Part shown: positions 13,992-58,585 of the stretch, piece by piece
Layout of the letters: each line of letters starts with the position of its first letter
How positions within the stretch are numbered: the first letter of the stretch is position 1
NCBI GenBank assembly: GCA_963708075.1
Contig: OY970194.1
Coordinates: 6,720,001-6,784,000, forward strand
Origin: Sedimentisphaerales bacterium
GTDB taxonomy: Bacteria > Planctomycetota > Phycisphaerae > Sedimentisphaerales > Anaerobacaceae
Length of the DNA stretch: 64,000 nt
Direction of reading: 5' to 3'
Program-made: the position numbers and the translations under genes
The notes under the pieces: generated by a model
The model's database searches: none
Told to the model about the DNA's origin: nothing
What the model saw: only the letters and a program-made list of their open reading frames with translations

Positions 13992-15521
13992 ATGTTGGCG
14001 AGGCTGCATAGTGTCACGCTGGAAGGTATCGAGGGTGTCATTTGCGAGGTGGAAGTGGACGTCGCCCGGGGCGGCCTGGAGAAGTCCATCGTCGTGGGCC
14101 TGCCCGATGCGGCGGTCAAGGAGAGTGTCGAGCGGGTCCGAAGCGCGATCGTCAACTGCGGGTACAGGTATCCCAAAACCCAGTCGCTGATCAACCTGGC
14201 GCCGGCGGATGTGAAGAAGGCCGGTCCCGCGTTCGATCTGCCGATCGCGCTGGGAATGCTCATTGGCGAAGGTGTCCTGACCGGGCCAGCCGTCAAGGAT
14301 TACGTCGTTGCAGGGGAGTTGGCCCTGGATGGGCGGGTTCGGCCGGTCAACGGAGTGCTCAGCATGGCCCTTACGGCTGCGGCCAACGGCTTTTCCCGGA
14401 TGATCGTCCCGCTGGACAACGCCAAAGAGGCCGCTGTCATGCAGAATATCGAGGTGTTCGGGGTCGGCTCACTGTCACAGGCTGTGGATTTCCTGGCTAG
14501 CCGGCTTCCGCTCGACACGACCATCACGGATGTCGATTCGCTATTCGATATCGCGTCACACTACGAGATCGACTTCTCCGATGTGAAGGGCCAGGAAAGC
14601 GTCAAGCGAGCCCTGACCGTCGCAGCGGCAGGGTCGCACAATATAATGATGATCGGGCCACCTGGTGCAGGTAAGACGATGCTCGCCCAGCGATTGGCGA
14701 CAATTCTGCCGCCGCTGAGTCTGGAGGAGTCATTGGAAACCACGCGCATCTATTCGGCCGTGGGACTTCTGAAGAAGGATCAGGCATTGCTGGCCACGCG
14801 GCCGGTTCGTGCGCCGCACCATTCGGCGAGCGGCCCGGCTCTCATTGGCGGCGGGTCTTCGCCCCGGCCGGGAGAACTCTCGCTGGCCCACTTCGGGATT
14901 CTCTTCCTCGATGAGTTCGTCGAGTTCCCGCGGCACGTGCTGGAGATGATCCGCCAGCCGCTTGAGGACGGCTACGTCGTCGTCTCCCGCGCCAAGAAGA
15001 CGATTCACTTCCCCGCCCAGTTCATGCTCGTGGCGGCCATGAATCCCTGTCCATGCGGATACTTCGGGAGCAATCTTCGGGCCTGCAAGTGCGCGCCGGG
15101 ACAGATCGCCCGCTATCTGGCCAAGGTGTCCGGGCCGCTCGTGGACAGGATCGACATTCACATCGACGTTCCCGCCGTGGCCTTCAGCAAGCTGCGGTCC
15201 AAAACGCGCCAGATTGACTCCGAGACGTTGCGGGCGACCGTCACGGCAGCCAGGCAGGTGCAGAAACGACGCTTTGGCGGAAGCAAAATCCTGACCAACG
15301 CGCACATGACGCACAAGCAGTTGGAGCAGTTCTGCCAACTCGATTCGGCCGGCGAGTTGCTGCTCAAGGAAGCAGTGCTGGAACTGGGGCTCAGCGCTCG
15401 TGCGCACGACAAGATCTGCAAGGTGGCCCGGACCATCGCCGACTTGGATGGCAGCGAAAACATCCGGGCCGAGCATGTCGCGGAAGCCATAGGTTATCGA
15501 AAGCTCGACAGAAAACTCTAA
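13992..15521 (+). CDS. comM: ComM/YifB Mg-chelatase-like AAA+ ATPase (intact)
   Basis: VGLPDAAVKES, NLAPAD..K.G..FDLPIA, GPPGAGKT, PHHS, GELSLAH.GILFLDE, AMNPCPCG, SGPLVDRID. Confidence 0.95.
   Translation: MLARLHSVTLEGIEGVICEVEVDVARGGLEKSIVVGLPDAAVKESVERVRSAIVNCGYRYPKTQSLINLAPADVKKAGPAFDLPIALGMLIGEGVLTGPAVKDYVVAGELALDGRVRPVNGVLSMALTAAANGFSRMIVPLDNAKEAAVMQNIEVFGVGSLSQAVDFLASRLPLDTTITDVDSLFDIASHYEIDFSDVKGQESVKRALTVAAAGSHNIMMIGPPGAGKTMLAQRLATILPPLSLEESLETTRIYSAVGLLKKDQALLATRPVRAPHHSASGPALIGGGSSPRPGELSLAHFGILFLDEFVEFPRHVLEMIRQPLEDGYVVVSRAKKTIHFPAQFMLVAAMNPCPCGYFGSNLRACKCAPGQIARYLAKVSGPLVDRIDIHIDVPAVAFSKLRSKTRQIDSETLRATVTAARQVQKRRFGGSKILTNAHMTHKQLEQFCQLDSAGELLLKEAVLELGLSARAHDKICKVARTIADLDGSENIRAEHVAEAIGYRKLDRKL
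14670..15521 (+). repeat. 852-bp direct repeat, copy 1 (3' part of comM)
   Basis: Aligns without gaps to 57734-58585 starting at GGTAAGACGATG. Confidence 0.95.
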
Positions 15522-15804
15522 GTTTCAGCCTTTGGCGTTGTTCCAAGCACTATTCCCCGATGAGAGATAAGGTTGGCAAGCCACACGAAAGGCCCAGCTG
15601 GCTTGAAGGGCTGGGGAGGGCAACGGACTGGTTGTACTATTCTCCCCTGGAAGAGTGGCTTTTTTACGCTTGACAGTGGTTTTCTGGGAGGGACAATTCG
15701 ATAGAAATGAAGGTGCGTAGTGACATTTTGGCGACATGAATCTGGTGAGACTTGAGCCTTGCGCCCGGCACCTTCTGGTCGGGCCTGATTGATGATGTCC
15801 GTAT

Positions 15805-18800
15805 CTACAACCGCCCGCTAAAGCCGTAGGACCCAATAGTCGATTTGGGAGCCACTTTCTGAGGGCCCCGCGGCGGGACCGTCTCGCCGGCCGCAATCTC
15901 CGCAAACGACATGGCTCGCCATAGCCTCAGAGTGCCATCGCGGCTGCCCGAGAGGATGGCGTTGCCGTGCTCGGCGAAGGCGACGCACCAGACCCACCCG
16001 GCATGCCCGGTCAGAATGGCCACTTCCTGGTCAATCTCGGGGTGCCACAGCCGGATCGTGTGATCCATGCCGCCGCTGGCGAGGGTGCAGCCATCCGGAG
16101 AGAAGACCAGAATGTTGACCGCACCGGCATGCCCAACGAGCTTGCGCAAGGGCCGTTGGCCACGGAGGTCCCAGAGAAAGATCACGCCGCGCTCGTCGGC
16201 GAAGGCCAGCAACTCGCTGTCGGGCGAGAACACCACGGAATCCAGAAAACGCACCTTCTGCGGGCTGCTGGCCACGACGCGGTGCTGCGCGATGTCCCAG
16301 ACGTGCACCCATCCTTCCGGGCTCCCGGTGGCGAGTCGTCTACCATCGCGCGACACTGCTAGGGGCTGCATTGGAGAAGAGCCCACCACGCCGCTGAAGT
16401 TCGCGATCATCCGCCCGCTCGCCACGTCGGTCAGCTTGATCCCCGTGCCAAATCCGCCCCCCGTCACCATGACCGTCCCGTTCAAGGCGTAGGCGATGTG
16501 AGTGATCAGGCCGTCGTGAAGCTTCAGAGGCTCCTTCACCCTCTCCAAGGTGTCCGCATCAAGGAAGGCGACCCTTCCGTCGCTGCTCCCCACGGCCAGT
16601 TCCCGGCCATCCGGCGAAAACGTAAGCCTCCCGAACCCCCACCCCGGGTCTCCGACCTTGAAGACATCGGTCATGGCCACGTGGGCCAGGATGGTTCCGG
16701 TTCCCAGATCGCACAAGATGAGGCTGTAATTCTCGGCAGCGACGGCCCGGTCCTGAGCGGGAGATACGGCGACTCCAAAGATCACGAGTTGTTCACGCTG
16801 CGGTGAAGGCATGTCCCTGGGAGGAAACAGCGTAGTGAACTCTTCGCAGGGCGGAAGGGAGGACGCGAAATCCGCCGTCTGCAGAGACCAGAGCCGGCCG
16901 GTGCCGTCATCACTGGCCGAAGCGAGCGAACGTCCGTCGGGTGCAATGACCAGTTGATTGACGGCTGCGCTGTGCCCAGGCAAGAGATCAGTCTGCGCCG
17001 GTTCTTCGACATTCCAGGAGCGAATGTTCTGGTCGAGACTGCCGGCGAACAGGGTCCGGCCGTCCGGCGTGAAAGCGACCGAGTTGACGTGGATAAAGTC
17101 GCTTCGCTTGGTGTACATGGTTGCCTGCCGTTTCACGTCCCACAGCACGACGCGTTCATCCGCGCCACCCGTGGCCAGCGTGCTTCCATCCGGCGAGAAA
17201 GCGGCAGACATGATGAAATCGACATGGGCTATGGGAAGATTCGTCAGGACGCCGTCAACCAGATCGTACAAGGCAACATTCATCGCTGGCGTGTCCTTCG
17301 TCTGATTGCAGACAGCCATGGTTCGCTCATCCGGCGAGAACGCCGCCGGCCCCAAGAAGCCAAGGTTCGTCCTCAACGCGAGCGTGGGTGTCGCGCCGGC
17401 TGAGCCGGTATGCAGTTCCCAGAGGTCAATCGATCGGGTATCGGTTGCCCGTGTGGCCAGAAACCTTCCGCCGGGACTGAAGGCGAAGTCGACAAACGCC
17501 CCCCGGCCCACGCTGGTCGAGAAGAGGATGCGCTCGCGGACGATGTCCCACATCTTCAGGGTGCCGTCGTCGCCGCTGACCGTGGCCAGCCATGTGTTGT
17601 CCCGGGGGTAGAAGGCCAGGTAATCGATGGTGCCCTCGTGGGCTTGCCAGCGTCTGATGCGTTGTCGCGTTTGCGCATCGAATAGCTCTACAAAGCCGTC
17701 GCCGGCGCCGAACGCCAGCGTGCGACCATCCGGCGAGTAGTCGACCGATTGAAAGCCGCCAGCGTTGGTGGCCAGCACGTCTGCCCGGCTGCTCGAGCAG
17801 AGCCGATAGAGATATCGCCAGTCGAAGCCGCGAAAGTCCGGCTGGCCTGGTGGCGGTCTCTGCGCCTTGAGCAATTCCAGCGCACCCCCAATCTTGCCCG
17901 CCTTGTAGGCCGCATGCGCGAGCTTCATCTGCGCGGCATAACGGCCGCCTTGGGCGATATGGCCCAGGCTTTGGGCCTGTGTGCGAGCCGCCGTCTCTCT
18001 CTGGCGTGCCTTCTCCGCTCGGAAGTACATCGTGGTGCTCACGACGAAGCCCAGCATGATCACCGCTGCCATAAGCACGACCGTGGCCACCGCGCCGGCG
18101 TGTTTCTGCACGAACTTCTTGACTCGATACGTGGTCGTCTCGGGCCCGGCGATCAGAGGATTGCCGTACAGATAGTTCCTAATATCATCTGCAAGCTCGG
18201 AGGCCGACCGATAGCGACGGGTGCGGTCCTTACGCATCGCCTTGAGTGGAATCCACTCCAGTTCCCTGTGCAAACGTCTAGCCAACGAGGCAACATCCGT
18301 GCGGCGACCTTCGGCGATAGTCCTGGCCTCTTCACCGAGGGCTGTAAGACGCGTGCTGGGTGTCTTAGGCTCCTCTTGGCAGATCACCCTGCGGGTCTGG
18401 TCAGGCCCGCCTTCGCGAAGGGTCTTGGGGTCAAACGGTAGTACGCCCGTCAGCAGTTCGTAGAGCACCACACCGAGCGAGTAGATGTCCGAGCGGGTAT
18501 CGACGTCCTGGGCGGTCAGTTCCGCCTGCTCCGGGCTCATGTACTCCGGCGTGCCGACAAACTGACCCTGTTCCGTCACGAGTGTTCGCTCGGTCAAAGG
18601 CTGGCTCACCGCCTTGGCGATCCCAAAATCGATCACCTTAGGCGTCGCCTTCTCACCCTCAATCAGAACTAAGATGTTCGACGGCTTGATGTCCCGGTGT
18701 ATAATGCCCTTGGTATGGGCATGCTGAATGGCCTCACAGACCTCCAGGAACAACTGGAGGCGTTCCTCGATCGTGAGCTTTTGGCGGTCGCAGTGTTCAA

Positions 18801-19210
18801 TGATAGGCACGCCTTTGACGTATTCCATCGCGAAATAGGGCCGCCCGGCCTCCGTTGTCCCGGCGTCGTGGACGTGAGCGATACTCGGATGGTCCAAGAG
18901 GGCCAAGGCCTGACGCTCGGCCTCAAAGCGGGCAATGACCTGCTTGGTATCCATGCCCGGCTTGATGATTTTCAAGGCGACCTGGCGTCTGATGGGGTGT
19001 TCCTGGTCGGCCAAGTAGACGATGCCCATACCCCCTTCGCCGAGCACGCGAACGAGCCTGTAGGGGCCGATCCGACTACCGGACGTCGCAAACAGTTCCA
19101 ACGAGACGGTAGGAGTCCCTTCGTCTTGCGGGCTTCCCTCTTCGAGAACCGAAGGATAGAAGCTCCCGCAACTGTTCGGGTTCAGCGCCAAATGCCGAGT
19201 CTCTGTCCAT
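15805..19210 (-). CDS. Hanks-type Ser/Thr kinase with a hydrophobic segment and C-terminal WD40 repeats (probable N-terminal frameshift; ORF 15805-19191)
   Basis: LGEGGMGIVY, VALKIIK, HRDIKPSN, DFG, GTPEYMSPEQ; many FSPDG...W repeats. Confidence 0.92.
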
Positions 19211-19332
19211 TCTCAAACCGCCTGAACTGACGAATGACGCAAACGCCGTCGGATTCGACGGGCATCCGCTCCCTGGCCCGGACGCCACTTTGCGGAAGGA
19301 GCAACTTCGTGCTCCCCAGATAACTCCACTCT

Positions 19333-20106
19333 TTATTGGGAATGTTGCGCGTTTTGCGGAAGAAATCCCATGATTTCTTTCAGTTCTTCATCCATTTCGC
19401 TCTCGCAAGCCACCGTACGGCGGAGATGTTGCCTCAGTGTGGCCTGGAAGCGCCTCTTGACCGTGATCATCATGTTCGAGGCCTGCTTCTCACTTTGAAT
19501 GCCATATCTCTCACAGATTTCCGTCAACGATGGAGGCTTTACGCTGTTCAGCAGAGGCTGGACGATCCTGTCATGGAAGACCTGCCAGTGGGTCTCCATC
19601 ACCTGCTCACGGCAGTCGGCTTTCACTTCCGAGAGGACCTGATCGAGCAAGGCGGAGACCCAGGCGTAGTTGTACAAATCCTCCAGACTGGACTGCGCGA
19701 CGCTTTCCGGCAGAACAGGCGGCTCAATGGCATCCAGCGAGACGATCTTGTCCTTGGGAATCTGTCTCTGAGCAGCTTCTCTCCGTCGCTCATTCAGAAG
19801 ATACATGTTCAGGGCGTGCAACAGGAAGGAGCGAAACCGTCCCTTGGATGAATCAGCCCGCTGGATCAGGTTGCGGTTCAGGACCACTTCGTGAAAGAAA
19901 CCCTGGGTCAGGTCCTTGGCCTGCTCGTTGTCGTAGCCCTTGCGACGTAGGTAGCAATACACCGGCTTCCAATACCTTTGGAGCAACAGGCCGATCAGCG
20001 CTCGCTCTTTGTCCTCATGGGCTTTGACGTCTTCGATCTCAGACCAATGCGTGGTGAGAAACGCTGCCCCCGTTCCCCCCATGTCCGTCTGATCGCGGCG
20101 TTTCAT
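19333..20106 (-). CDS. ECF-type sigma factor, kinase-associated planctomycete type
   Basis: FLTTHWS, YWKPVYCYLRRKG...AKDLTQGFF, KGRFRSFL; lies directly upstream of the kinase. Confidence 0.85.
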   Translation of the reverse strand: MKRRDQTDMGGTGAAFLTTHWSEIEDVKAHEDKERALIGLLLQRYWKPVYCYLRRKGYDNEQAKDLTQGFFHEVVLNRNLIQRADSSKGRFRSFLLHALNMYLLNERRREAAQRQIPKDKIVSLDAIEPPVLPESVAQSSLEDLYNYAWVSALLDQVLSEVKADCREQVMETHWQVFHDRIVQPLLNSVKPPSLTEICERYGIQSEKQASNMMITVKRRFQATLRQHLRRTVACESEMDEELKEIMGFLPQNAQHSQ

Positions 20107-20419
20107 ATTCGCTACCCCATCGACTACGGCTTGGCGCCTCCACGCCATCGGACTGACCCTGCTGGAGCCTATGGTAGCGAGCCCAGTGAGTATCCGCAAG
20201 CGATAAACCAGGGTGTGTCAAGGACTTGCACGTCTCCACAGATCTCCCGCAAGAGAAATTCTGGAATTCGCGCAGCATCCAAGATTTTCAGGTGATTGGA
20301 TTACAGAGGCATGGCTGTGAACCAGCGTTCCAAGGTCGCTCTTCGCAGCTCCTGAAATAGGCGAATCAGCGTTCCAGTGTCGCAAGTGCTTTGGCCGAGG
20401 AGCCAGAAAGGGCAGAACC

Positions 20420-22942
20420 ATGAAAGCGACGACCAAGAACCACACAGCCCGGAGGCCGGGCCAGGATGTTCAGACTGGCGGAACAGGTACGCACGGGAAA
20501 ACGGCGACCCACGTGACTGCTGTCGCGTTGCTTGCCATCCTGTGCTTCTTGCCAGCTGCTTGGGCGGAGGTCTACACGATCACAGTTGGGAACGAAGAGT
20601 TTCGTTTCACCCCTCAGCCTGAGCGAGGATACGTGGTCAAGTGTGCCGAGAAGGCCGGCGGCATTACCGCGTCGAGCGACATCTCAGCCCTCGATCCGGA
20701 CCATACGACGCCGGTCGGCGGGACGGATTGGCACGGCATCTACATGGTGGAGAATGCCGGTCCCGCGGCCGAGAATGAACGGGCCATCACAAGACTCAGA
20801 CAGCAGGGACGGGTCGCTTTTGCGGCTCTCCTGTTCTCATCCAACGGGCAAACGGTGGCGATCATCCCAGAGATCGTCGTACGAATGGTGCCGGGCGCGG
20901 AGATGAAACAGCTTCAACGCCTTTGCGAGAAGGTGGATTGCCGGCTCAAGAAGCGGATGGAGTTCACGGAGCAGGAGTATCTCCTGGAGGTCCTGGGGCC
21001 GGACGCCGAGGCTGTCTTTGCTGCCCTTGAGGCATTCAACCACTGCCCCGAGGTCGAGTGGGCATGCCCGAATACTGCATTCCAGCCGAAGCTCGGTGAC
21101 CAAGTTGTGCCGGACGGCGCTGTTGTTGACCAAAGGGTTGGGATTGCATCGGCGGGAGAAGATCCCAATAACCTCGGCGTGTTCCCGAACGACGAATACT
21201 TCCCCATGCAATGGCACCTGCACAACACGGGCCAGTCAGGTGGGACACCCGGTGCGGACATTCGCGCGCCGGAGGCGTGGGAGATTACGACGGGAGACCC
21301 GAACATTGTGGTTGCCGTCCTCGACTGCGGCGTTGACACCAGCCATCCTGACCTGATCGACAACCTGGTCGCAGGATACGATTTCTACGAGAATGACCCG
21401 TTTCCAGACCCCACCCTTGTTGGGGAGACAAACCTCCACGGCACAGCTTGTGCGGGTCTTGTCGCGGCTCAAGGCAACAACTCTATTGGCGTCACGGGAG
21501 TTACCTGGAACTGCAAGGTGATGCCCATCCGACAAACACAGATACAATCCAACCCCGCCACGGAAGACATCGGGGCGACGGCACTCCGTTGGGCTGCGGC
21601 ACATGGCGCCGACATCTTAAATGGGAGAGGGGCCACTAACTACCCAACTCCCATCATTCACTCGGCGATAGTGGATATCACAAAACCAGGAGGAATCGGT
21701 CGAAACGGCAAAGGATGTGTTCTTGTGTACCCTGCGATCAACGCCAACGCGTTGGTGTATTACCCCGCGAGGTATCCGGAGGTTATCGCTGTTGGCGCCA
21801 CGGACCACAGGGACCTGCGCTGGGGCTATAGTAATTACGGGCCGGAGTTGGACATTATGGCTCCGGGCGGGCCATATCCGCCCGGCTCGGCCGGGGACGT
21901 ATTCGCCATCTGGACCACCGATATTGCCGGAAGCCCCGGCGGTAACGGGATCATCAGGGGCCTCCGCATCACAGACTACATCCCATTTGGTGGGACTTCT
22001 GCTGCCACTCCAATCGTAGCCGGCGTAGCGGCCCTGATTCTGTCCGTGGAGCCCAATCTCACGAACGACGAGGCTCGGCACTTCCTGGAGCGGTCTGCAA
22101 AGGACCTCGGCGATCCGGGGAGAGATGACTACTATGGTTGGGGTCGAGTCGATGCGAGGGCGGCACTGGATATGGTCCTGGCCAAGCGGGCGGACCTGAA
22201 CAACGACTGGAAGGTGGACGAAGAGGACCGGGCCATTCTGATGAAAGCGATAGAGGCCAATGACGTCTCGGCCGATATCGCTCCTGCGGCCAAACGCGAC
22301 GGCGTCGTCGATGCAAAGGACCTTGAGCTTTTAACACAGTATTTGGGAACGGTCATCCCGGAGTTGGGCTTGATCGCCCACTGGAAGCTGGATGACGTGG
22401 AAGGTGACATAGCCCATGAGAGTATCAATGACCACGACGGCACTCTGCATGGTGGCGCTGTATGGCAGCCGACCGGCGGCAATCTCGGCGGCGCCCTACA
22501 GCTCGATGGCGTGGATGACTGTGTGAAAACTGAGTTCATTCGCGATCCAGCAGAAGGCCCCTTCAGTATCTTTGCCTGGGTCAAGGGCGATGCGCCGGGG
22601 CACGTGATCCTCTCTCAGGAGAAGGGGGCCAACTGGCTGGTGGCGAGTGCGCCGGACGGCACGTTGGCCACAGAACTCAAGAGCTCCGGGCGTACCGGGA
22701 AGATGTTGAAGTCTACCATAATCATCACGGATGGCGCATGGCACCGCGTTGGCCTTGTCTGGGATGGCACCAACAGGATTCTCTACGTGGATAACGTCGA
22801 AGCAGTCAGGGACACACAGACGACGCTGGCGGGAACCTACACGGGTTTGCACGTCGGGGCCGGTAGTACGCTCGCCCCCGGCACCTTCTGGTCCGGCCTG
22901 ATCGATGACGTGCGAATCTATGATCGAGCGGTCAAACCGTAG
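20420..22942 (+). CDS. Secreted S8 subtilase with dockerin-like and LamG domains
   Basis: Catalytic triad motifs VLDCGVD, HGTACAG, GGTSAATP; ADLNNDWKVD; IAHWKLD...GLIDDVRIY. Confidence 0.92.
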   Translation: MKATTKNHTARRPGQDVQTGGTGTHGKTATHVTAVALLAILCFLPAAWAEVYTITVGNEEFRFTPQPERGYVVKCAEKAGGITASSDISALDPDHTTPVGGTDWHGIYMVENAGPAAENERAITRLRQQGRVAFAALLFSSNGQTVAIIPEIVVRMVPGAEMKQLQRLCEKVDCRLKKRMEFTEQEYLLEVLGPDAEAVFAALEAFNHCPEVEWACPNTAFQPKLGDQVVPDGAVVDQRVGIASAGEDPNNLGVFPNDEYFPMQWHLHNTGQSGGTPGADIRAPEAWEITTGDPNIVVAVLDCGVDTSHPDLIDNLVAGYDFYENDPFPDPTLVGETNLHGTACAGLVAAQGNNSIGVTGVTWNCKVMPIRQTQIQSNPATEDIGATALRWAAAHGADILNGRGATNYPTPIIHSAIVDITKPGGIGRNGKGCVLVYPAINANALVYYPARYPEVIAVGATDHRDLRWGYSNYGPELDIMAPGGPYPPGSAGDVFAIWTTDIAGSPGGNGIIRGLRITDYIPFGGTSAATPIVAGVAALILSVEPNLTNDEARHFLERSAKDLGDPGRDDYYGWGRVDARAALDMVLAKRADLNNDWKVDEEDRAILMKAIEANDVSADIAPAAKRDGVVDAKDLELLTQYLGTVIPELGLIAHWKLDDVEGDIAHESINDHDGTLHGGAVWQPTGGNLGGALQLDGVDDCVKTEFIRDPAEGPFSIFAWVKGDAPGHVILSQEKGANWLVASAPDGTLATELKSSGRTGKMLKSTIIITDGAWHRVGLVWDGTNRILYVDNVEAVRDTQTTLAGTYTGLHVGAGSTLAPGTFWSGLIDDVRIYDRAVKP

Positions 22943-22997
22943 GACGCATACCGATCAACTCCGAGTGAGGATGCGTGAAGAGAAAGGGAGGTGCAAC

Positions 22998-23405
22998 ATG
23001 AAATCGCCTCAGTCTTGTAAGGCTAGTTTTGCGGCCATCGCCGTCTTGGGCCTTGCCGGTATTGTGGTCGCTGCAGGGGATACCTGGACGTACAAAGCCA
23101 TTATGCCCACGGCGCGAGGTTTCGTGTCCGGCTGTGTCCTGGATGGAAAACTCTACGTCATCGGAGGGTTCCCGAGTCATTACTCGGTGACGGCCGCGGT
23201 AGAGATGTATGATCCCGCTACCGATGCATGGACCAGGAGGGCTGACATGCCAGCAGCGCGGTGCGGTCATGCCACCTGAGCTTGGGACGACAAGGTGTAT
23301 GTGTTCGGGGGAACGAGTCCGGACCCATACGATACGGTGCGGCCGAGAAGAACGTTTACGCGTATGACCCACACACCGACATTTGGACACAGAAAGCTGA
23401 TCTGC
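22998..23405 (+). pseudogene. Kelch-repeat secreted protein, truncated
   Basis: GKLYVIGG, YDPATDAWT; in-frame TGA at 23277-23279, then DKVYVFGG; frameshift; similarity ends after WTQKAD. Confidence 0.75.
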
Positions 23406-23424
23406 ACCTGCATGTGTGTCTAAG

Positions 23425-23665
23425 GGTAGATAAACTGTCTGACAAAACCATCGGGCTACGGTCGCTATCTTCCTCGTGGTGCTGGCGCGGCCGTTCGGCC
23501 AAGCAAGCCACTGCGGCACTCGATGCGCTTGTCACTTTGCGTGGCTCAATTGCCCACGGTGTTTCAGTCGCCAATAGTGTTACGCTCTCAGATGTTAAAG
23601 ATGCCCGCAACTTCATCAGGCGATTGGCGACGAAGACTCACAACCGCGTATGCAGTTACCTTCAA
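23425..23665 (+). pseudogene. HEPN-domain C-terminal fragment
   Basis: LDALVTLRGSIAHG fits the HEPN RxxxxH motif; no start or N-terminal part. Confidence 0.5.
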
Positions 23666-23767
23666 CCGGCATTGTCCTTCGGATGTCACGCCGCAACAAT
23701 ACCTTCACATTCTGATGGGACCGTGGATGGGCGATCCCTGTCGTGCTAAGACAGAACCAGTCGGCCG

Positions 23768-41725: not shown

Positions 41726-41728
41726 GGC

Positions 41729-44674: not shown

Positions 44675-44689
44675 AGCTCTTCTTGCACC

Positions 44690-46239: not shown

Positions 46240-46329
46240 TGGAATAATGGAACGATGGAACAATGGAGTATTGGGGCACGCACCGGCCGCTTCCCCATCA
46301 TTTCATCATTCCGATATTCCGTCATTCCA
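46240..46329. repeat. Inverted array of 8-bp units (GGAAYRAT/ATCATTCC), MITE-like
   Basis: Four 8-mer units face four complementary units. Confidence 0.75.
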
Positions 46330-46347
46330 ATCTCCCGTCGTACATCT

Positions 46348-46650
46348 TCACTGCCGGCTGAACCGGGCGACGAACTCCAGGTGGCCCCTGAGGACCCACA
46401 TCTTCTCCAGAAACTCCGGCCAGCCGCAGGAGGGCTGGAAACCTTCCGGGGCCTCCGAGTCAATCACAGTGCCGGAGACGACGACCCCTTCGAGTTCTCC
46501 CCAGAGGTCCGCCCAGACACTCAAGGCATCCTGCACAACGTTGCCGGTGACACCTCGAAAATGGGCCAACTCGGCCTGGGGCAAGGGTGCTTTGGCGATG
46601 ATCTGCGATTTCTCGCCCTCAAACTTGACCAGCTTCACACCCTGATTCAT
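46348..46650 (-). CDS. Hypothetical protein (~100 aa), first gene after the sigma54 promoter
   Basis: ATG 46650 with GGAAG RBS; co-oriented with the operon. Confidence 0.6.
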   Translation of the reverse strand: MNQGVKLVKFEGEKSQIIAKAPLPQAELAHFRGVTGNVVQDALSVWADLWGELEGVVVSGTVIDSEAPEGFQPSCGWPEFLEKMWVLRGHLEFVARFSRQ

Positions 46651-46717
46651 ACTTCCGGTCCAATATGTGTCCACCCAGCGCCTGGGTACTCACATTGCCC
46701 AGGCCGCTATCGATCAG

Positions 46718-46734
46718 TGCAAGAACCGTTCCAG
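46718..46734 (-). promoter_or_regulatory. sigma54 -24/-12 promoter
   Basis: Minus strand CTGGAACGGTTCTTGCA with exact GG-N10-GC spacing; IHF-like TTTCAATGGTTTA at 46772-46784. Confidence 0.7.
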
Positions 46735-46926
46735 CGTGTCCGAACCATCGATGTGTCTGTATCTCCTGATATTTCAATGGTTTACGTGGAATGATCGGGA
46801 ATGCACTCTCAGACCTGCCCGGGGAGAATTGGCACAGAAAGTGGGCCACGGATCAACAAATGAGCCACAGTAGATGGAGAGGCTGCCTGCTGGTGCTTAT
46901 GGTGGTGCTTGTACTTGTGGGCCGAA

Positions 46927-49246
46927 CTAAAAGCTTATGCCGTATTCCTGAAGGCGACTGCGAAGGGTGGTCCGGCTGAGTCCGAGCTTGGCGGCGAGGG
47001 TTCGCTGGCTCATGCCGTCGGAAAGCGCACGGGAAATGATGATCCGCTCAATCAGTCGCTGGAGGCTCTTCCCTGGCCCCGGCTGATTCCTCTGCCGTCT
47101 TGTAGTACCGTTCCAAGAGCACCTGAAGGTCGCCCTGCAAACCGTCAAGACTGAGCGGACCGCGATGAGCAGGTCCATCTGATGCACCATTGAGGACTTC
47201 GGCAGTCAGCAGACTTATCGATAGTGTCTTGCCGGGGCTCATCACAACAGCGTGCTCGATGCAGTTCTCCAACTCACGCACGTTGCCGGGCCACGAGTAC
47301 GCCAGAAGATGATCCAGGACCTCACGAGAGATCTTCGTCACTGTCTTGCCGTTCTCCCGGTTGTATTTCTCCAGGAAGTGGTCCACGAGCATGGGAATAT
47401 CTTCGCGCCGCTCGCGAAGCGGAGGCAGGTGGATTGGCACGACGTTCAGCCGGTAGTAGAGATCCTGGCGGAACCGGCCTTGGCGGATGACCTCTTTCAA
47501 ATCCGTGTTCGTGGCGGCCACAACGCGGACATCCACGCGAACCGTCTGCGTGCCGCCGACCGGCTCGAACTCGCCCTCTTGCAGTACCCGCAGGAGCTTG
47601 ACCTGGAGACGCGGGCTCATCTCCGAGACCTCGTCCAGAAAGAGCGTCCCCTGATGGGCCAGCTCGAACCGCCCCTTGCGGTTCTGGATGGCGCCGGTGA
47701 ACGCTCCCTTGACGTGGCCGAACAGTTCTGATTCGAGCAGCGTCTCCGGCAGTGCTCCGCAATTGACTTTCACAAGGGGCCCCTTCGAGCGGGGGCTGTT
47801 ATAGTGGATCACGTTGGCCACCAGCTCCTTGCCCGTGCCGGTCTCGCCATTGATGAGGATAGGAGCGTTGGACTTGGCGGCCGTGGCGGCTGTCGCCAGG
47901 ACCTGCTGGATCGACTTGCTCTGGCCGATGAGATTCTCCAGGCGATAGCGGCTGCGCAGCTCGCGGAGCATTTGTTCATCCCGGATGAGAATCTCGTCTT
48001 TTTCGACCTGAAGCAGGCGGTTGATCTTGAGCACCTGGGAGGCGAGTGAGGCCACAATTGACAGAAGCCGCAGGTCCTTGTCGAGGGTAGATTCCACCGC
48101 GAACGGCCGATCCACGCTCAGCGCGCCGACCGTTTCATTGTCCACCTTGAGCGGCACACAGATGAATGCGATTGGCCATGCCGAATCCGTCTGGCGTGCT
48201 GAGGTACGGTTCAGGAATCTCGCGTCCTTGGAGATATCCGGCACCGCCTCGGGCAGTCCGGTCTTGACGACATGACCCGTGATGCCTTCGCCGATATCGT
48301 ACTCGCCCCGCGCTCGCTCGGCGCTCGAAAGCCCATGAGCAGCCACGATGCGAAGTTTGCCTACTGTCCGGTCAAGGAGCACGACGGTGCCGCGGATCAT
48401 CCCCAACTCGCTCGCCAGCACGTTCATGGTCTCTTCGAAGAAGGAATTGGGGACCAGGGCCGTGCCCAGCGCCTCGCCCATCCGTGTCAACAAGCTCAGC
48501 TCGCGATCTTCCCGCGACTCGGCGGCAATCGCCAGCTTGCCATCGACGATCCGAAACCACTGGGGCACGCCGATGGCCGTGCTACGCCGGTTGGCCGCCT
48601 TTCGCAAGGTCAACGTGCGAATCCCCCGGGAGATGCCGATCTCCAGCACGACTTGCGTGATATGCCGCACCTTGGCGAGAAATCGTGATGAGTGAGCTTC
48701 CGTCTCCAACAGCCAGTATGCGATTGTGCGGAGGTCAAAGAGCCGCGGACAGATGTGTCCGAAGAACCGCAGGACGACATCCTCATCGCCCCAGAGGTCC
48801 AACATCCCCGTCAGGCTGTCAAACACATAGCGCGTCTTGGTTCTCTCGGCCGATCCCGCTTCAGTCAGTGCTTTCTCCAGCTCGGCGGCATCGGAGGGAT
48901 TCTCTACACGCACCACGGCCTGGTGCGACTCCTTCTCCGAGGATTCGTAGAAATCGAGGAAGACTCTGTCGTTGTTTCCCTTTCCCGACGAGAAGCAGTC
49001 GATCAGTCGGAAGGCGCCCTGCGACATGAGCCCCGTATACGTGCGGCTGATCGTTTGCGGCGAGCGATTGAAACTCACGTAGGCGATGGGCGAACCCTCG
49101 GCCTCACTGGCCGCCAGAAAGCTCGAAACGAACTTGTCCACCGGCGCGCCGGAGTCCACTTCCAATACAATGTTGTCGCCGGGTAAGACGCCACCTACCA
49201 GGCGGTCAATCTCGGCAATACCGGTTGTCAACACAGGTTCACTCAA
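46927..49246 (-). CDS. sigma54-dependent activator: degenerate KaiC/RAD55-like domain, NifA-like GAF, AAA+, Fis HTH (frameshift near 47075)
   Basis: [72 protein letters not shown] in a shifted frame. Confidence 0.9.
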
Positions 49247-50641: not shown

Positions 50642-52217
50642 TGTGCCTGTCAAGCGGGCGTCGGACCGCCTTGCGTCGACGAAACTCGGCATCAGAACGC
50701 GTTCCGGAGATGGCGTGTGTGGAGACCGGAGTGGGATGGGGGCAGGGGGGCGAGTGGGTTCGGCGTACCGGGGAAGGGCAATCAGGACGCGTCATTCGAG
50801 CCATTGGCAGACTCTGGGCGTGGCAAGAGTGCGAAAGCCAGGGAACAGCAACTACGCCGCGTTCTTCAGGCGGTACGCGGTGAGTCGGGTCTCGATGAAC
50901 ACGTGACGTTCGATATTGGAGGGCACAGTCTTCGCATTGCGCTTCGGCATCTCGGGCTTATGGCTGTAATAGAGGTCATCTGGGCGGCAACCCTCCAGAG
51001 TCATATGCGGTCGCCACGTGTTATACCAGCTTTCGAATTCGATGCACAGGGACGTGAGGTGGTCGAATCCCTTGATGAGGGGCACGCAACGCAGCCACTC
51101 GTATTTGAGGGTCTTGATGACCCGCTCAGTTACGGCGATAGACCCGTGTTTGCCCACGGCTCCCAAACGAGGCTTGATGTTCCATTGTTCCAAGAGTTCG
51201 GCAAAAGCATCTCCGGTGAAGACACTGGCTTGGTCGGAGATGATGTGCTTCGGTGCCCCATGCTTTTGCATAGCCAGCTCCAGGGCCTCGATGATCCAGC
51301 CGGCGTTGGGGCCTTCCACAGGAGCGACGCACATGACCTTGCGGGAGAAATGGTCGATAGCCACGCACACGTGAATAGGCCACAGGCCCCAACGCAGGAC
51401 CTTCGTGGTATCGACCGACCAGACGTGATTGGGATGCGAGGCCGGAATAGCACGAGATTCAGCTTTCTCTACGTTCTCAGCAGGGGCTGCCGTTGTGGGG
51501 AGCTTGCGAGGTTTCGGCCTCTGCAGGATGTTTCGCACGCTGGAGGCGGAGAGGAAGATGCCGAGCAGTTTCAGCTGGTTGGCGATGCGGATCCGGCCCC
51601 AACTGAGGTTGGCCTTGGTGATCTCCCAGACGAGCGCGGCGATCTCTGCTGGGGTCTTGTTGACTGGACTGCTGGAGGATTTCTGGTCTTCGATCTGGTG
51701 CAGCCAGCGGTAGAGCGTGGATCGGGCGATGCCGAAATACCGGGAGACTCTGCGTCTGGGGATCTGGAAGGCCTCCACGTGCCAGAGGATAAGGAGTCTT
51801 TCACGAACGGCGTATCGTGGGCTCTTGCCCTTCCGGTTGACGTGCTTCTGCAGGATCGACACCTACATTTCGAGCTGGTAGATCCGGTCTTTGAGAAAGA
51901 GGATTTCCTTGGCTTTGGCATCAGTATCCTTGGCCGCCAATCGTTTGAGGCTTTGCCTGCGAACCCGCCCCGAGAATCGAGCGGCCAGCAGGGCGGCTCG
52001 GATGAGCAGTGAGATAGCGGCATTAATAATGTCAAGATTCTCTGCCATGCCACCTCCTCCAAGGCTCCACAAAACGATGCCAGCGAAGCGAATTGGAGTG
52101 ACAGTATAGCCTTCGACGGGGGCAGAAAGCCAGCCAGAAGGCAGGGTGCCTAAGTGTTGGTCATGCAAAGGGATAGGTACGTATCCAGAATGGTCCCGCC
52201 GGCGCTTGACAGGTACA
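50642..52217 (-). mobile_element. IS-like element (IS481-like ends) carrying an integrase-core gene
   Basis: 15-bp IR TGT(G/A)CCTGTCAAGCG at 50642-50656 and 52203-52217; no target duplication seen. Confidence 0.55.
50852..52048 (-). pseudogene. HTH plus rve-type DDE transposase with an in-frame TAG at 51863-51865
   Basis: FGIARSTLYRW HTH; WSVD, ISDQ, TERVIKTLKYE; both ORF parts share one frame. Confidence 0.8.
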
Positions 52218-52410
52218 GGCAGACCTGACATCAGAGCGGTGAATTCTGCCCGCCGTCCTTCATTGATCATAGCAAGGAATCGGTTATGGCTGGTTTCACC
52301 CGATTCTTGACATTGTGGCCGTGTTCAAGACGGATGCAATGTTCAGGGATAGGAATTGACTTATGGCGAGGAGTCCTCTTGTGTGCACGCTATTGTCAGT
52401 TTCTGTCCAC

Positions 52411-52749
52411 TCACAGAGCCAAGTGTAACCAGTTGTTTCTTGCTATCTGCCCTTCAGAAAGAGCAGTACTTCCGACTCCAGTGACTGCCGTGGTGAGGCC
52501 TGCCACTGGCGGCAGTCCGCAGAACGCTTCTACTACTCCAATTGGAAGCGAAAGATAAGTGCACCAACGGCTAACGCCCCCCAGTTTCAAGCCACGTCTC
52601 AAATCCCTACTCGCTTTATTGATGGCCTGTACTGCACGGGCTGCCGCTTTCTCTCTACTTTCCCGCAAGGACTCCTCGACTTCGCTAACCACATCTCGCA
52701 GCGCTCGAATCGCTCCCTCACGTTTTTCCTTCAATCTGAAAACATCATC
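52411..52749 (-). pseudogene. C-terminal fragment of an unknown protein, interrupted by IS630
   Basis: Removing the IS restores ...YIENLLDDVFRLKEKRE..., but a stop lies ~13 codons upstream of the insertion site. Confidence 0.5.
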
Positions 52750-53899
52750 TAAGTAGGTAGCCAAAAGTTTTCACAGGAACGATTCTCTTCGCGTGTATGA
52801 TGGGGTACATGCGAAGAACGAAGAGCGCCTCAGAACGTGGTTTCGATCGATATGATAAACATCGTCTTACGCGGGCCTTACAGGGGGTCGCTGACATTCG
52901 CACCTACCGGCGTATCGAAGCGATCCTGTTGGTGGCCCAGGGTCGGACGGTTCCGGAAGCAGCGCAGATCACCGGGACCCGGCCGTGGAGCGTCTATCGC
53001 TGGGTGCGGGCCTATCTGCACACCCATTGTCCAGACCGCCTGCAGGACGCACCGCGTTCCGGACGGCCTCCGGTCGCCACGCCGATCACGGACGCCCGTC
53101 TGGTACGCGAGTTCCGCCGGGACCCGATGCGTTTGGGCTATCGCGCCACGGGTTGGACGGTGTCCTTGCTGGCAGATCACCTCCAGCAAAGGTACGGGTG
53201 TGCAATCTCGCCTCGTACCCTGCGGCGGCGGATGCGGGACTTGGATCTGCGGTGGAAACGTCCCCGGTATGTCTATGCGACCAAGGACCCGAACCGAGCC
53301 CAGAAAAAGGGGGCCTGGTTCGCCGCCTGAAACGGATGCCGGCGCTGGCGGTGCTGTTGTTTTCGGATGCGACCATCCTCCGCTGGTTTCCGCCCTTGCG
53401 CTATGTGTGGGCGTTTCGCGGCGAACAGGCGCAGGTCAAGATCACGGGTCAAAACGACAAACGGGTTCTGTTCGGCACGATCAATCCACGAACCGGACAC
53501 CGGGTGGTCCTGCGTCGGCCCCGCCAGCGGCAAGAGGACTTTCAAGCCTTCCTGCGGGAGTTGCGGCGACGGTATCCCGGACGCCCGATTTGGCTGTTGC
53601 TGGACAAGGCCTCTTTTCATCAGGCGATCAAAAGCCAACGACTGGCCACCCACTTGGAGGTGACCCTCTTGTGGTTGCCGAAGCAGTGCCCGGAACTGAA
53701 CTCTCAGGATCATCTCTGGAAGGAGTTGAAACGGTTGATTGCGGCCAATCGCCAGTTCCAAACGATTGATGATGAGGCGGCCTACGCGGAACAGTGGCTC
53801 TTGGGACTAACTGCGACCCAGGGCCTCCGCAAAGCCGGTGTCTTGTCGGCGGATTTCTGGCTCAAGGCTTTTGTGTGAAGACTTTTGGCTACCTACTTA
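52750..53899 (+). mobile_element. IS630-family insertion sequence (coordinates include both TA copies)
   Basis: Inverted ends TAAGTAGGTAGCCAAAAGT(T/C)TTCACA with one mismatch; reconstructed empty site CTAG. Confidence 0.92.
52797..53878 (+). CDS. IS630 transposase in two ORFs joined by a probable programmed -1 frameshift
   Basis: HTH ORF 52797-53330; AAAAAGGGGG at 53304-53313; catalytic ORF with FSD, LDKASFH, LPKQCPELN. Confidence 0.88.
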
Positions 53900-54471
53900 G
53901 CAGATTCTCTATGTATTGCCCATACGAGCCGAGTAGTCAATCCGCCAGGGCCCCCACGTCCCTTCTGAGCCCATGCCAACATGGCGTGCCTGCCAGTTGG
54001 TACTCTAAGCCATGGGCTATGATCATTCATCCGGCTGGCTGCGGCCATGTGGGGTTCAGTGAAGCCGGCCCCCTACCTGGCAGGGATTTGTAGGTTGACA
54101 ACCCCGGGACCTGCTACGGTCTTTTCTGGGCGTTGCTGTCGACCATATCCTGTTCCGCCCGTGATTCCGCTCACTTGCTGAAGCTTGATGTAAGGGCCGA
54201 CCATCGACATTTGCTCCGACAGCTTTGATTCCTTGCAGAAGATGCCCTCTGTACTTGCGACCGAGAATGCGTAATTTGCTGATTGTCCGGTTGCTGCCTC
54301 TGCAATACAGTTGACTCAAAGGGATAGGCGAGAGGTTGCGTCTCTCGCCGCCTGCAGACCGACCTGTCCAGTAACCATTTGCGTACGATCTTCCCGAAGA
54401 CGCTCGAGCACAGACAAGGTGTGGGACTATAGATCACGACTTCATGCGCATCTATTTCAGGAGGTTTTGAG

Positions 54472-57228
54472 ATGTCTGCACTACCGCTACTACCCAGCAA
54501 ATCGCTCACAATACTCCATATTTCCGATCTGCACTTGCGTACCCGAGATCTCAAGGAAGCAAGTCTCTGGAAGAGACTGTGGAAGCGGTTGTTCACTAGG
54601 CTCACTCCCGAAGAGAACGGCTGGAAGAAACTGTGCAAATCGCCCATACTCAAGGAGGCTAATCTTTGCGTGATCAGCGGCGACCTCCCTCGCCGCTCAC
54701 CAGCAAAAAGACTATACCGGGCCTTGCGAAAGGAGTTGGATGCACAGTTTCCTTGCCTCAACGGAAGACGACACTGGATTGCCGTTCCCGGGAACCATGA
54801 CCGAAGATTCCTGGGGAACTTCATTCTGGGTGAGCGCACCTTCGAGCAAGGTCTGGACATGAATTGGAAGCAGCCGTGGTGGGATCCAGATTATCCATGC
54901 ATAGTGATCCCACTGGACTCAAATCCCCGAAAGGCCGGCCTGCTGAGAACCAAGCTCGCTCTGGCACGTGGCGTGCTTGGGGATGAGTGTGACCGAATAG
55001 GCATTGAATTCCAGAATGTAAGGGAATCAGTTAAGAAGCATTTCTTTGAAGTCTTGTCTGAGAAGCCCGCCAAAGAAGTCGCATCCTATGCGATGAACCT
55101 TCGCGCGGCCTTCAATGTCGACGAAATTGAGAAACTCCGGCGTGTCGCCTACCCCAAGGTGAGAGAGCCACCCTATGAGGGTTTGGCGTCCAAATTGATC
55201 GACCGTACGGCAGAGGTTCTGGCATGTCTCTACATGGCGTGCGCCGTCAGGTGCGTCGTCTTTCATCATCACCCAATAGGCGTGCGAAGCGATGACAACA
55301 TCAGCATTTTCCATCAGGACACTTATCTGCTGCTAATCGACTCAGGAGCCTTTCTGGAGTCGGCCCGGGAGAACCAAATCAGCCTGGTTCTACATGGCCA
55401 CAAACATGTCCCGCATCGGATCGCAGTCCATCTGCCGGAGCAAGATATTGAAGAGGTGGGCATCGTGGGTGCGGGTAGCTCGACACGGAGGTCAAAGCAG
55501 GCAAGCGCAACAGCCAATGTGATCGGCGTTAATGAGGCGGGTGAGGTAGATGTCAAGTTGTTTGACCCTTGGGCCAATGACTGGTCCCGCCAACCGTCGC
55601 CGGTGCACCTGCGGAAGTGGTCGGAAGTTCGTAAGCATCTCAACGCAGAAGCAAATGACTGCGCTCGGTTCTCGTCGAAGGATACTCAGGTTGATGTGAG
55701 CATGCTCCCTTATGGCGATGCGATCATGACGGTAGAAGAGCATGGCTTATCGGTCAATCCAAAACTAGGTCAGGGAGCGCCAGCCATCTTCGAAATCCCG
55801 ATTAGTTACAAATCCACTACCCAGATCGGACCCGTGCAAGTAACATGCCAGATAGAGAAGCAGGGTTCTCAATGGCAACAGGTTGTCTTTCATTGCCATC
55901 AAGAGCCTGGCTATGGGCCTGGCGAGTGGCACGGGTTAGTAAGAATAGAACCAACGGCTCCTGAGCAGACAACTTCATTCACTTTAACAACACGCTTCAT
56001 CGCGTTCACCACGTTCGCGATGAATTCTTGGCAAGCGAGTTTTATGTACGCGAACAGGGATGTTCCACATAAGGAACACTGGTACTGGCGTTGCGGAATC
56101 CCAGTTAGGAAGCAACTCTTTGTCGCTCTTGAAACTACAGGCAACAGAGCCCTCGCGCCCACCTTCGAGAATCTGTATTCCAGATACTACAGGATTGACG
56201 GCTATGTTGACCAGAAAGAGCGTGACGAGATAATTATGGATCGAGCCGCGTCCAGCCAACGTGTCGCATTCACGGTACCGACACCGCTTTGGGGCTCCGA
56301 ATACGGTATCGGCTGGGAATGGGGAAATCAATCGCCTGCGACGTGGCAGAACACTCCTGTTTTTACAGGTCTTCGAGAGCAACTCGATGTCGAGGCGCGT
56401 GAGGCTCGATCATGTGCTACCTCGCTACTACGGTTGATGTTAACAAACGCCCTCCGAGAAATAGGCAAAGAACTGGAAGCTACGCTCTATGTTTTGACAC
56501 GGCCCAGTGGTGACGATCCGGGTAAGCTGATTCAAATAGCATGGAACCAACTTGTGGAGCGATCCACAGCCCGCGGGTTCGAGATGAACTTTGGAGCCGG
56601 AGTGGCGGGTAGGGCGGCATCACTGCAAAAGACCGTGGCATGGGTTCAACAGAACTCTGGCGCGACGGCTGAGGACAGATTGGTTGATTTTTATCTTCCC
56701 GAGGCAGAACGCAGCGGACATACGGGAATCCTGGCGGTTCCAATTCCACGTAGTCAGCCTTTAGTGATTCTTTCCATTGCCAGCACACAGGAGGACGACG
56801 CCTTCTCGTGCACGCTACGGCGGATTCTTGGGTGGGGAGGGCGGACGCAAATGAAAGACTATCCCAGATTTTCCGATTGGATTGGTCGGTTGTACCAGAG
56901 GATCAATGGTGTACTCATGCAGGCGCAGTCCAATCTCAGCGGTGAGGGTGCAATGCCCAAGCTAGATCGCATTCCGCTAAACCCCGCGTTCGATGATGTG
57001 GATGAGCAAGAAGTCGTTATCGCCGAGGCCGAACAAACCGAGAATGGACAATGGGATGATGCAATACGCTCAATAAATCCGGACAAGATCCAACGATCCT
57101 TAGAGAGGTTTGAGATCGCCCTTCCCCTGAAGATGGGGAGTGGACGCTCCTCCAAGGCACAGCAGAGGATTTCCCGATGGGTACCTAATCCCGGTAAAAA
57201 GAGTAAATCAACGAGACAAAAGAAATGA
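54472..57228 (+). CDS. 918-aa calcineurin-like metallophosphoesterase with an unknown beta-rich middle domain and a GAF-like C-terminal domain
   Basis: HISDLH, SGD, PGNHD, FHHHP, LHGHKH; GAGVAGRA...ILAVPI...ILSIAS; AGGAGG RBS. Confidence 0.8.
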   Translation: MSALPLLPSKSLTILHISDLHLRTRDLKEASLWKRLWKRLFTRLTPEENGWKKLCKSPILKEANLCVISGDLPRRSPAKRLYRALRKELDAQFPCLNGRRHWIAVPGNHDRRFLGNFILGERTFEQGLDMNWKQPWWDPDYPCIVIPLDSNPRKAGLLRTKLALARGVLGDECDRIGIEFQNVRESVKKHFFEVLSEKPAKEVASYAMNLRAAFNVDEIEKLRRVAYPKVREPPYEGLASKLIDRTAEVLACLYMACAVRCVVFHHHPIGVRSDDNISIFHQDTYLLLIDSGAFLESARENQISLVLHGHKHVPHRIAVHLPEQDIEEVGIVGAGSSTRRSKQASATANVIGVNEAGEVDVKLFDPWANDWSRQPSPVHLRKWSEVRKHLNAEANDCARFSSKDTQVDVSMLPYGDAIMTVEEHGLSVNPKLGQGAPAIFEIPISYKSTTQIGPVQVTCQIEKQGSQWQQVVFHCHQEPGYGPGEWHGLVRIEPTAPEQTTSFTLTTRFIAFTTFAMNSWQASFMYANRDVPHKEHWYWRCGIPVRKQLFVALETTGNRALAPTFENLYSRYYRIDGYVDQKERDEIIMDRAASSQRVAFTVPTPLWGSEYGIGWEWGNQSPATWQNTPVFTGLREQLDVEAREARSCATSLLRLMLTNALREIGKELEATLYVLTRPSGDDPGKLIQIAWNQLVERSTARGFEMNFGAGVAGRAASLQKTVAWVQQNSGATAEDRLVDFYLPEAERSGHTGILAVPIPRSQPLVILSIASTQEDDAFSCTLRRILGWGGRTQMKDYPRFSDWIGRLYQRINGVLMQAQSNLSGEGAMPKLDRIPLNPAFDDVDEQEVVIAEAEQTENGQWDDAIRSINPDKIQRSLERFEIALPLKMGSGRSSKAQQRISRWVPNPGKKSKSTRQKK

Positions 57229-57733
57229 AGGCAGACCCGTGGTTGCGGGCTATTCGGAGAGGCTCGCTGGATGGATGTGTCTGATGAGCCATTAGACGCT
57301 GGTCCGCCATCGCTGATGCGGCTGATAGTTTCTCGTCCGCCGTTACCCGCCCAAGCTACTGTGAGAACACCGTCTGCAGATTGGCGGGGTGCAGAGTACG
57401 ATCTCGACTCCGACTTCTGACGGTCGAATATAGCCCTCGGCGTGGTCAGGAAAGTATCTCCTTTGCCTTCCGTTGGCCCATAACCATATACATAGCTACT
57501 TCGGTACCCCCTGGTCTTCACCACACGGAAGCGTCTTCGGCGACACACTTCGGGAGACGAGTTCGTCTGACATTCCTTCACTGGCCTTGCTCCACTACGT
57601 CAGGCAGGACCACACGGAGCCCTCGGGGCACCCAAACCCACACGATGACAGGTGCATTCCAAGTAGTGCGGAATACCGTCCAGCGGGGGCGGCAAATCCG
57701 TTGCCATGGATACTGACTATGAACACCCTTTCG

Positions 57734-58585
57734 GGTAAGACGATGCTCGCCCAGCGATTGGCGACAATTCTGCCCCCGCTGAGTCTGGAGGAGTCATTGG
57801 AAACCACGCGCATCTATTCGGCCGTGGGACTTCTGAAGAAGGATCAGGCATTGCTGGCCACGCGGCCGGTTCGTGCGCCGCACCATTCGGCGAGCGGCCC
57901 GGCTCTCATCGGCGGCGGGTCTTCGCCCCGGCCGGGAGAACTCTCGCTGGCCCACTTCGGGATTCTCTTCCTCGATGAATTCGTCGAGTTTCCCCGGCAC
58001 GTGCTGGAGATGATCCGCCAGCCGCTTGAGGACGGCTACGTCGTCGTCTCCCGCGCCAAGAAGACGATTCACTTCCCCGCCCAGTTCATGCTCGTGGCGG
58101 CCATGAATCCCTGTCCATGCGGATACTTCGGGAGCAATCTTCGGGCCTGCAAGTGCGCGCCGGGACAGATCGCCCGCTATCTGGCCAAGGTGTCCGGGCC
58201 GCTCGTGGACAGGATCGACATTCACATCGACGTTCCCGCCGTAGCCTTCAGCAAGCTGCGGTCCAAAACGCGCCAGATCGACTCCGAGACGTTGCGGGCG
58301 ACCGTCACGGCAGCCAGGCAGGTGCAGAAACGACGCTTTGGCGGAAGCAAAATCCTGACCAACGCGCACATGACGCACAAACAGTTGGAGCAATTCTGCC
58401 AGCTCGATTCCGGGGGTGAGCTGCTGCTCAAGGAGGCTGTGCTGGAACTGGGTCTCGACGCACGTGCCCATGACAAGATCTGCAAGGTGGCACGGACCAT
58501 TGCCGACCTGGATGGCAGCGAGAACATTCGCGCCGAGCACGTCGCGGAGGCCATCGGCTACCGCAGACTCGACCGGAAGCTCTGA
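57734..58585 (+). pseudogene. comM: 5'-truncated comM (repeat copy 2), open frame, in-frame ATG at 57719
   Basis: Begins at the Walker-A GKT codons; three amino-acid differences from copy 1 by manual comparison. Confidence 0.9.

Follow-up and report, generated by a model that had tools for sequence, protein, structure and literature searches.

A displaced Walker-A half of comM downstream of an intact copy: a probable relic of an LSR insertion in a sediment planctomycete

How does a bacterial chromosome come to carry a complete comM gene and, some 43 kb downstream, a second copy of its 3′ half? The question is raised by a window of 64,000 nucleotides (the whole stretch of DNA analysed here) from a Sedimentisphaerales bacterium, whose genome, G000, is a single contig of 7.5 Mb. 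Positions 14670-15521 and 57734-58585 form an ungapped 852-bp direct repeat at an offset of 43,064 bp, with 41 mismatches (95.2% identity). Similarity ends exactly to the left of the Gly-Lys-Thr codons on the 5′ side and at the stop codon on the 3′ side, and these two repeat copies are the only comM matches in G000. Copy 1 is the 3′ half of a complete 509-aa comM (TIGR00368, 592 bits against a cut-off of 362). Copy 2 keeps an open frame for residues 226-509 and stops 17 bases ahead of a convergent NUDIX gene. Both the repeat, starting at the Walker-A GGT AAG ACG codons, and the completeness of the gene in copy 1 had been recognised in the initial annotation of this DNA, and both were confirmed. 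The features of the locus are collected in Table 1.

Table 1 Features of the comM locus and of the DNA between the two repeat copies, in window coordinates
Feature	Position	Strand	Basis
comM/yifB, intact, 509 aa, with copy 1 as its 3′ half	13992..15521	+	repeat alignment, TIGR00368
GG of the Walker-A Gly226 codon, putative LSR crossover dinucleotide, attB restored	14670..14671	+	centre of mirrored arms, split comM of G525, G575 and G468
Repeat head, 7 synonymous differences from copy 2	14670..15314	+	alignment, dS 0.044
Repeat tail, 34 differences from copy 2, different functional allele; switch between 15216 and 15316	15315..15521	+	
Post-stop spacer, resembles the sequence after comM of relative G013	15522..15560	+	
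Genus-typical accessory genes: Ser/Thr kinase-WD40, ECF sigma factor, S8 peptidase, large fn3 protein	15805..30256		
MetV(DUF5981)-MvhD-HdrA-like-HdrBC-like-GATase/GXGXG-two GltB-like-MetF-MvhD-like operon, sigma-54 regulator	31943..49246	-	
IS481/IS3-like element, 15-bp terminal inverted repeats, candidate right-hand repair junction	50642..52217	-	
Foreign remnant of the element's right part, incl. 918-aa metallophosphoesterase at 54472-57228	52218..57733		
IS630, 1 of 15 near-identical copies in G000	52749..53900	+	
attR of the comM-specific LSR family: element arm ending ...TATGAACACCCTTTCG, then GG core	57689..57735	+	
Displaced comM 3′ half, residues 226-509, open frame, no indels	57734..58585	+	
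NUDIX gene, native right-hand neighbour in this lineage	58603..59094	-	

The repeat is a mosaic. Seven differences fall in its first 645 bp (1.1%) and 34 in its last 207 bp (16.4%; best-split Fisher p 6e-16, uncorrected for the choice of split), and all five between-species comM pairs that we compared diverge evenly over head and tail. The differences in the head comprise 7 synonymous and 0 non-synonymous changes (dS 0.044), a pattern with a p of about 0.002 under neutral drift of one copy. In the tail, dS is about 1.2, dN 0.026 and dN/dS about 0.02; between the complete copies, 36 of the 40 codon-level differences are synonymous, with no indels. Judged by divergence, the head lies at a within-species distance and the tail at a between-species distance. 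Since the differences in head and tail alike are mostly synonymous, both halves descend from working comM alleles. When placed in a tree with the comM tails of 26 relatives, the tails of copies 1 and 2 cluster together against all the others (support 0.98), and none of these relatives emerged as the donor of the foreign tail. One of our candidates, G013, was rejected as donor because its comM tail is 79.7% identical to both copies; it was also rejected as a case of the same layout, its 22-kb insert having no displaced half.

The sequence ahead of copy 2 had been taken to be unrelated, with the suggestion that 57700-57745 be compared with serine-recombinase att sites. This comparison proved positive, and the sequence is a recognisable att arm: the 45 bases to the left of copy 2 match the right-hand arm of large-serine-recombinase (LSR) elements that split comM in related genomes, at the same Walker-A Gly codon (Gly226). 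The first lead came from G048, which alone among 60 relatives had a comM fragment beginning at this codon with similar bases ahead of it. A class-wide pattern that fixed the comM codons downstream of the site (GKTMLA), excluded Pro at the codon upstream and left the arm letters free matched 8 of 401 class genomes. The arm is common to G000, G048, G468, G525, G561 and G575, degenerate in G517, and absent from G648. A metagenome scan with a pattern that included two arm letters returned 19 loci, most with the arm at Gly226. With a profile of five other genomes, among them G048, where the motif was first spotted, a fraction of only 1.5e-5 of 200,000 random genome 45-mers reaches the score of the window arm, and intact comM scores -10. 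It is identical to the arm of locus L156 at 27 of 45 positions and to that of L151 at 31 of 45.

The left-hand side of the family is readable in G525, G575 and G468, in each of which the comM 5′ half stops at the same codon and is followed by the inverted att arm. These left arms mirror the right arm around the GG of Gly226 (33 of 45 bases in G525), so that three of three readable left junctions run into a mirrored arm and none into a comM replacement half. The contigs that hold the junction in G048, G468, G525, L149 and L156 also encode an LSR composed of Resolvase, Recombinase and Zn-ribbon domains, and primase-polymerase or PolA-like genes adjoin it in two of these. As far as can be read from sequence, the arms, the GG core and the adjacent LSR are the att architecture of an LSR element. 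A Tn7-type end with a 5-bp duplication was rejected, as ACA is followed by non-host bases and the two arms mirror each other.

Compact LSR elements were also observed in comM of Phycisphaerae-like genomes (L031, 10396-17091; L156, 1150-7199; L166; L149). They carry primase-polymerase or PolA-like genes, and their LSRs have a C-terminal HTH_17 and are 48-61% identical to the G048 protein. Other searches returned little. A narrow junction motif gave 22 loci among all GTDB representatives, one of which is comM, two matches in 401 phylum genomes and none in viral contigs, and an order-level search matched 3 of 401, the new one, G023, being a short stub without the arm. Among phage records there were 32 comM matches, none with a Walker-A replacement half, and a search of viral sequences for related loci gave two, both uninformative. 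A protein search for a free-standing half-ComM yielded matches of 280-291 aa that are indistinguishable from contig-edge calls at internal Met codons.

The opposite end of such an element was sought in the window and throughout G000. The expected left att arm is absent from the window (3 mismatches) and from G000 (2 mismatches). No recombinase gene had been visible in the initial annotation, and this holds: Pfam identified none in the 54 ORFs of the window, and tblastn with four family LSRs found none there and had no match in G000, nor did PF07508 match anywhere in that genome. A 578-aa serine recombinase 1 Mb away in G000 is unrelated to the family LSRs (25% over the catalytic domain), and the four matches to PF00589 (tyrosine recombinases) each lie more than 200 kb from the locus. 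The locus has the fixed core in comM and the related attR arm of a comM-targeting LSR element; it lacks the mirrored attL, the cognate LSR and the disrupted target. With attL and LSR missing and comM at full length, it is a relic of the family and not a member.

The DNA between the repeat copies had been read as one element, a reading that its mixed contents do not bear out. By gene content and composition, the 43 kb is not one element: about 35 kb are accessory genes of host type, followed by an IS and by a foreign remnant of 5.5 kb. The accessory genes at 15.8-30.3 kb are rich in paralogs and show no synteny in 23 genus genomes. Within or at the edge of this stretch we also observed five to six diverged 288-bp fn3 repeats (27429-28976) in a 2162-aa surface protein, and an orphan LamG-domain C-terminus (15758-15835) of the kind that ends many kinase/ECF-associated genes of the genus, which suggests tail shuffling in kinase/ECF modules. 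The operon at 31.9-49.2 kb has a host-like composition and a patchy presence in the genus, with multi-kb matches at about 78-91% identity in 10 of the 23 genomes. Its position differs between relatives, and the flanks in 11 genomes never place it beside comM or the neighbours found in the window. The HdrA-like protein of the operon has 1494 aa and a fused oxidoreductase, and its MetF, MetV and HdrBC-like proteins are the only close homologues found in G000. We take the set of MetF, MetV, MvhD-like, HdrA-like and HdrBC-like genes to recall MetFV-Hdr-Mvh complexes, and the GATase/GXGXG gene with two GltB-like genes presumably recalls N-methylglutamate synthase; the operon is possibly an anaerobic methylamine or C1 module. 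A literature search on the operon gave no "methylglutamate" among the matches listed.

The remnant itself has an atypical composition and, IS630 aside, no match in the 23 genus genomes, and only these 5.5 kb look like the inserted element. Its 918-aa metallophosphoesterase gave a weak, below-cut-off match to an anti-phage phosphoesterase family, and PADLOC gave no match on six remnant or cargo proteins. At the border between host-type genes and remnant lies the IS481-like element, which has no target duplication here or in relatives. IS630 was considered as a repair junction and rejected, because the reading frame that it interrupts resumes on its other side.

We consider it the best explanation, with a probability of roughly 0.6, that an LSR element split comM and that copy 1 was later rebuilt by recombination with the DNA of a relative, which removed the left end. 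Copy 2 is then likely the native 3′ half of comM, displaced by the insertion at the Walker-A codon, given that an att arm stands beside it and that the left ends of the family carry no replacement half. The LSR element would first have inserted at this codon, splitting comM and displacing its native 3′ half. A double exchange with a relative's DNA, anchored in or upstream of the comM 5′ half, would then have had its other end within the element, at a shared IS or by illegitimate joining, possibly by homology-facilitated illegitimate recombination. In this exchange attL and the LSR would have been swapped for the donor 3′ half and about 35 kb of following genes, and the right-hand repair junction would lie at or near the IS at 50642-52217. 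A mirror event, in which a split haplotype recombined in from the NUDIX side, would give the same product. The order of events and the route of uptake are conjectural; uptake by transformation is possible, and G000 carries comEC and dprA. That recombination restored comM at a later stage, removing the recombinase, had been one of two proposals in the initial annotation; it agrees with the matching att arm and with the absence of attL and LSR from G000, and stands as a fitting, if conjectural, account. Against the repair reading, a further and earlier exchange between species, or else a later gene conversion of the head, has to be assumed to account for the foreign tail. The donor haplotype, comM followed by the cargo genes, occurs in 0 of 23 genus genomes, and recombination salvage of comM in A. 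baumannii was no commoner than chance (PMC11472951).

Considerably less likely is a circle from a sister species, formed by imprecise IS-driven excision, that held the remnant, attR, the donor 3′ half and 35 kb of the donor's chromosome, and that entered an intact comM by one RecA crossover, followed by homogenisation of the repeat head. This single step would account for the foreign tail, for the absence of the left arm and LSR, and for the IS where host-type genes and remnant meet. Yet one crossover should leave donor-host divergence along the whole repeat, of which the head is 99% identical; moreover, the block has no replication or transfer gene, and the composition of the operon is host-like. 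Neither a circle nor an empty site was seen directly.

The layout could also have arisen on the computer, if a strain with intact comM and cargo and a strain with split comM had been joined at the repeat, although we regard such a chimera as improbable. The genome is of single-contig metagenome type with a contamination estimate of 3.8%, glyS holds a probable one-base error, and none of the contig pieces listed crosses the attR junction (46-64 kb compared with 4 of 20 runs). However, run X1, which may be the source sample, covers the parts of the locus to similar depths, 1.7-4.3 for the cargo (leaving aside two conserved-domain bins), 1.2-2.9 for the remnant and 0.2-4.2 for the right flank, and the flank that both strains would share is not doubled. 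The flanks of IS630 form one reading frame, and a split strain should have left the left arm and the LSR, both absent from G000. Contigs of other studies contain pieces of the locus. X2 record 16 holds a 150-base piece identical to copy 2 over the head-tail switch. X4 record 20 follows the window for 295 bases with 6 differences (5 to copy 1) and diverges from it exactly at 57734, and X4 record 22 links the end of comM with NUDIX, the identity being about 90%.

The right-hand border has a history of its own. A STAS gene follows comM in 17 of the 23 genus genomes (12 by gene match, 5 by leader) and NUDIX does so in none, NUDIX-YhcH-glyS usually lying near asnS. In G000 a reciprocal junction at 6.344 Mb (C1:6344250-6344460) joins the asnS/paralog cluster to STAS, so the adjacency of comM and NUDIX (window 58585-58603) comes from a rearrangement in the lineage itself. 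Three further observations concern the surroundings. The glycine-tRNA ligase gene (59699-61176, minus strand) has a frameshift near 60415, probably an assembly error since runs X1 and X4 have one base fewer there, and a second frame change near 60220. A 4-5 kb cluster between the cupin/DsbD genes and comM in about nine relatives is missing here (13827-13992). Short palindromic intergenic repeats at 417-619, 3796-3928 and 10772-10979 recur in many dozens of copies genome-wide and are REP/MITE-like.

The other proposal of the initial annotation, that the element carried a long replacement 3′ half and so kept comM intact on integration, is very unlikely. A serine integrase requires its att arm directly after the core, and all three left junctions that could be read in the family enter the inverted arm, not comM, leaving the gene split. 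The arrangement of whole gene, insert and displaced fragment does correspond to that of icd/icdC as described for e14 (PMC13626634), and comM is also intact in three of the seven arm-bearing class genomes (G000, G561, G517), the remaining four (G048, G468, G525, G575) having no intact copy; fragmented assemblies limit these counts, and the comM 5′ half of G048 is cut by a contig end. But the three intact genes stand in three different geometries, 43 kb upstream in G000, directly after a 28-codon stub in G561 and on another contig in G517, which favours case-by-case host repair over element design. A duplication within the cell, with excision from one sister chromosome, copying of the 3′ half by unequal recombination and later drift, is just as hard to credit: the two tails do group together, but a dead copy should gain non-synonymous changes and indels and the divergence is stepped rather than uniform, all of which disfavours it unless copy 2 is itself expressed and selected.

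Stray 3′ fragments of varying length were also observed in other genomes with a whole comM, namely G021 (L037, 10444-12336), G006 (L034, 10101-10436), G060 (L032, 9185-9660), G051 (L038, 5670-5795) and G648 (L169). In G021 comM is inverted next to its own tail, and in G648 the second comM half lies 1.1 kb downstream, without an att arm.

This is a known kind of element at a known target, and no new mechanism is involved. According to the text of Durrant et al. (PMC10083194), 12.4% of predicted site-specific integrases target the Mg chelatase/comM gene family, and LSR-type elements in comM are also described among sr1WO prophages (PMC9203015) and alphaproteobacterial pipolins (10.1101/2024.05.22.595293). 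The family described here has in common with the comM-targeting LSR elements of PMC10083194 the target gene, a Resolvase/Recombinase/Zn-ribbon LSR, a short core and mirrored arms. In those elements, as presented there, comM stays split, with attL and attR at the two breaks and the LSR between them, whereas in the window comM is whole and attL and LSR are gone. The Walker-A position is not stated in the text of PMC10083194 that was compared, and its supplement may list it. With e14 in E. coli icd/icdC the locus shares a whole gene at one end and a synonymously differing C-terminal fragment at the other (PMC13626634). As that paper describes, e14 brings its own C-terminal replacement and excises on SOS induction, whereas the comM LSR family brings none; at comM the displaced fragment measures 852 bp and the cognate recombinase is absent. 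The e14/icd type is thus matched in the whole gene and displaced 3′ fragment, and is not matched in a replacement fragment within the element's att or in an integrase next to the restored gene. Tn6022/AbaR and Tsy elements also target comM, but are described as using TnsF and a site in the Walker B region, a 5-bp duplication of the target being described for Tn6022 (PMC10293859, PMC11014353). In contrast, the junction in the window lies at Walker A (residue 226) and has an LSR-type arm, and the 54 ORFs of the window include no Tns or YRec/TnsF genes. An intact comM with a displaced Walker-A half was not described in the openly accessible paper listings and text passages searched.

The att arm offers an in-frame start five codons ahead of Gly-Lys-Thr, which is ATG here; an ATG, GTG or TTG start occupies this place in 10 of 24 distinct arms. 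It is conceivable, if improbable, that insertion yields an N-truncated ATPase subunit that damps the ComM ring, that hosts repeatedly re-acquire a whole comM and that both forms are kept.

The element now appears stranded, and the block can plausibly leave only by RecA-type recombination between the repeats. Recombination of this kind between near-identical repeats can delete the intervening DNA. For icd/icdC, loss between gene copies offers a RecA-type precedent, and loss of the insert is described as giving a chimeric functional gene (PMC13626634). A deletion through the 645-bp stretch of near-identity could leave comM whole beside NUDIX, and 645-bp repeats of 99% identity around a single-copy redox operon are a substrate for deletion or amplification. 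Losing the block would remove the only close MetF homologue of G000 with the rest of the operon, and the loss of its sole MetF, MetV and HdrBC-like homologues may hold the block in place.

A current view, set out in PMC11441513 and PMC12378983, is that by disrupting comM such elements weaken the capacity of the host to purge them by transformation. The locus resembles the host-side outcome of this conflict, with comM mended, the element immobilised and a scar left behind. It extends the conflict over comM to uncultured sediment planctomycetes, and the analysis supplies reconstructed att arms and LSR sequences for a Walker-A-specific integrase family.
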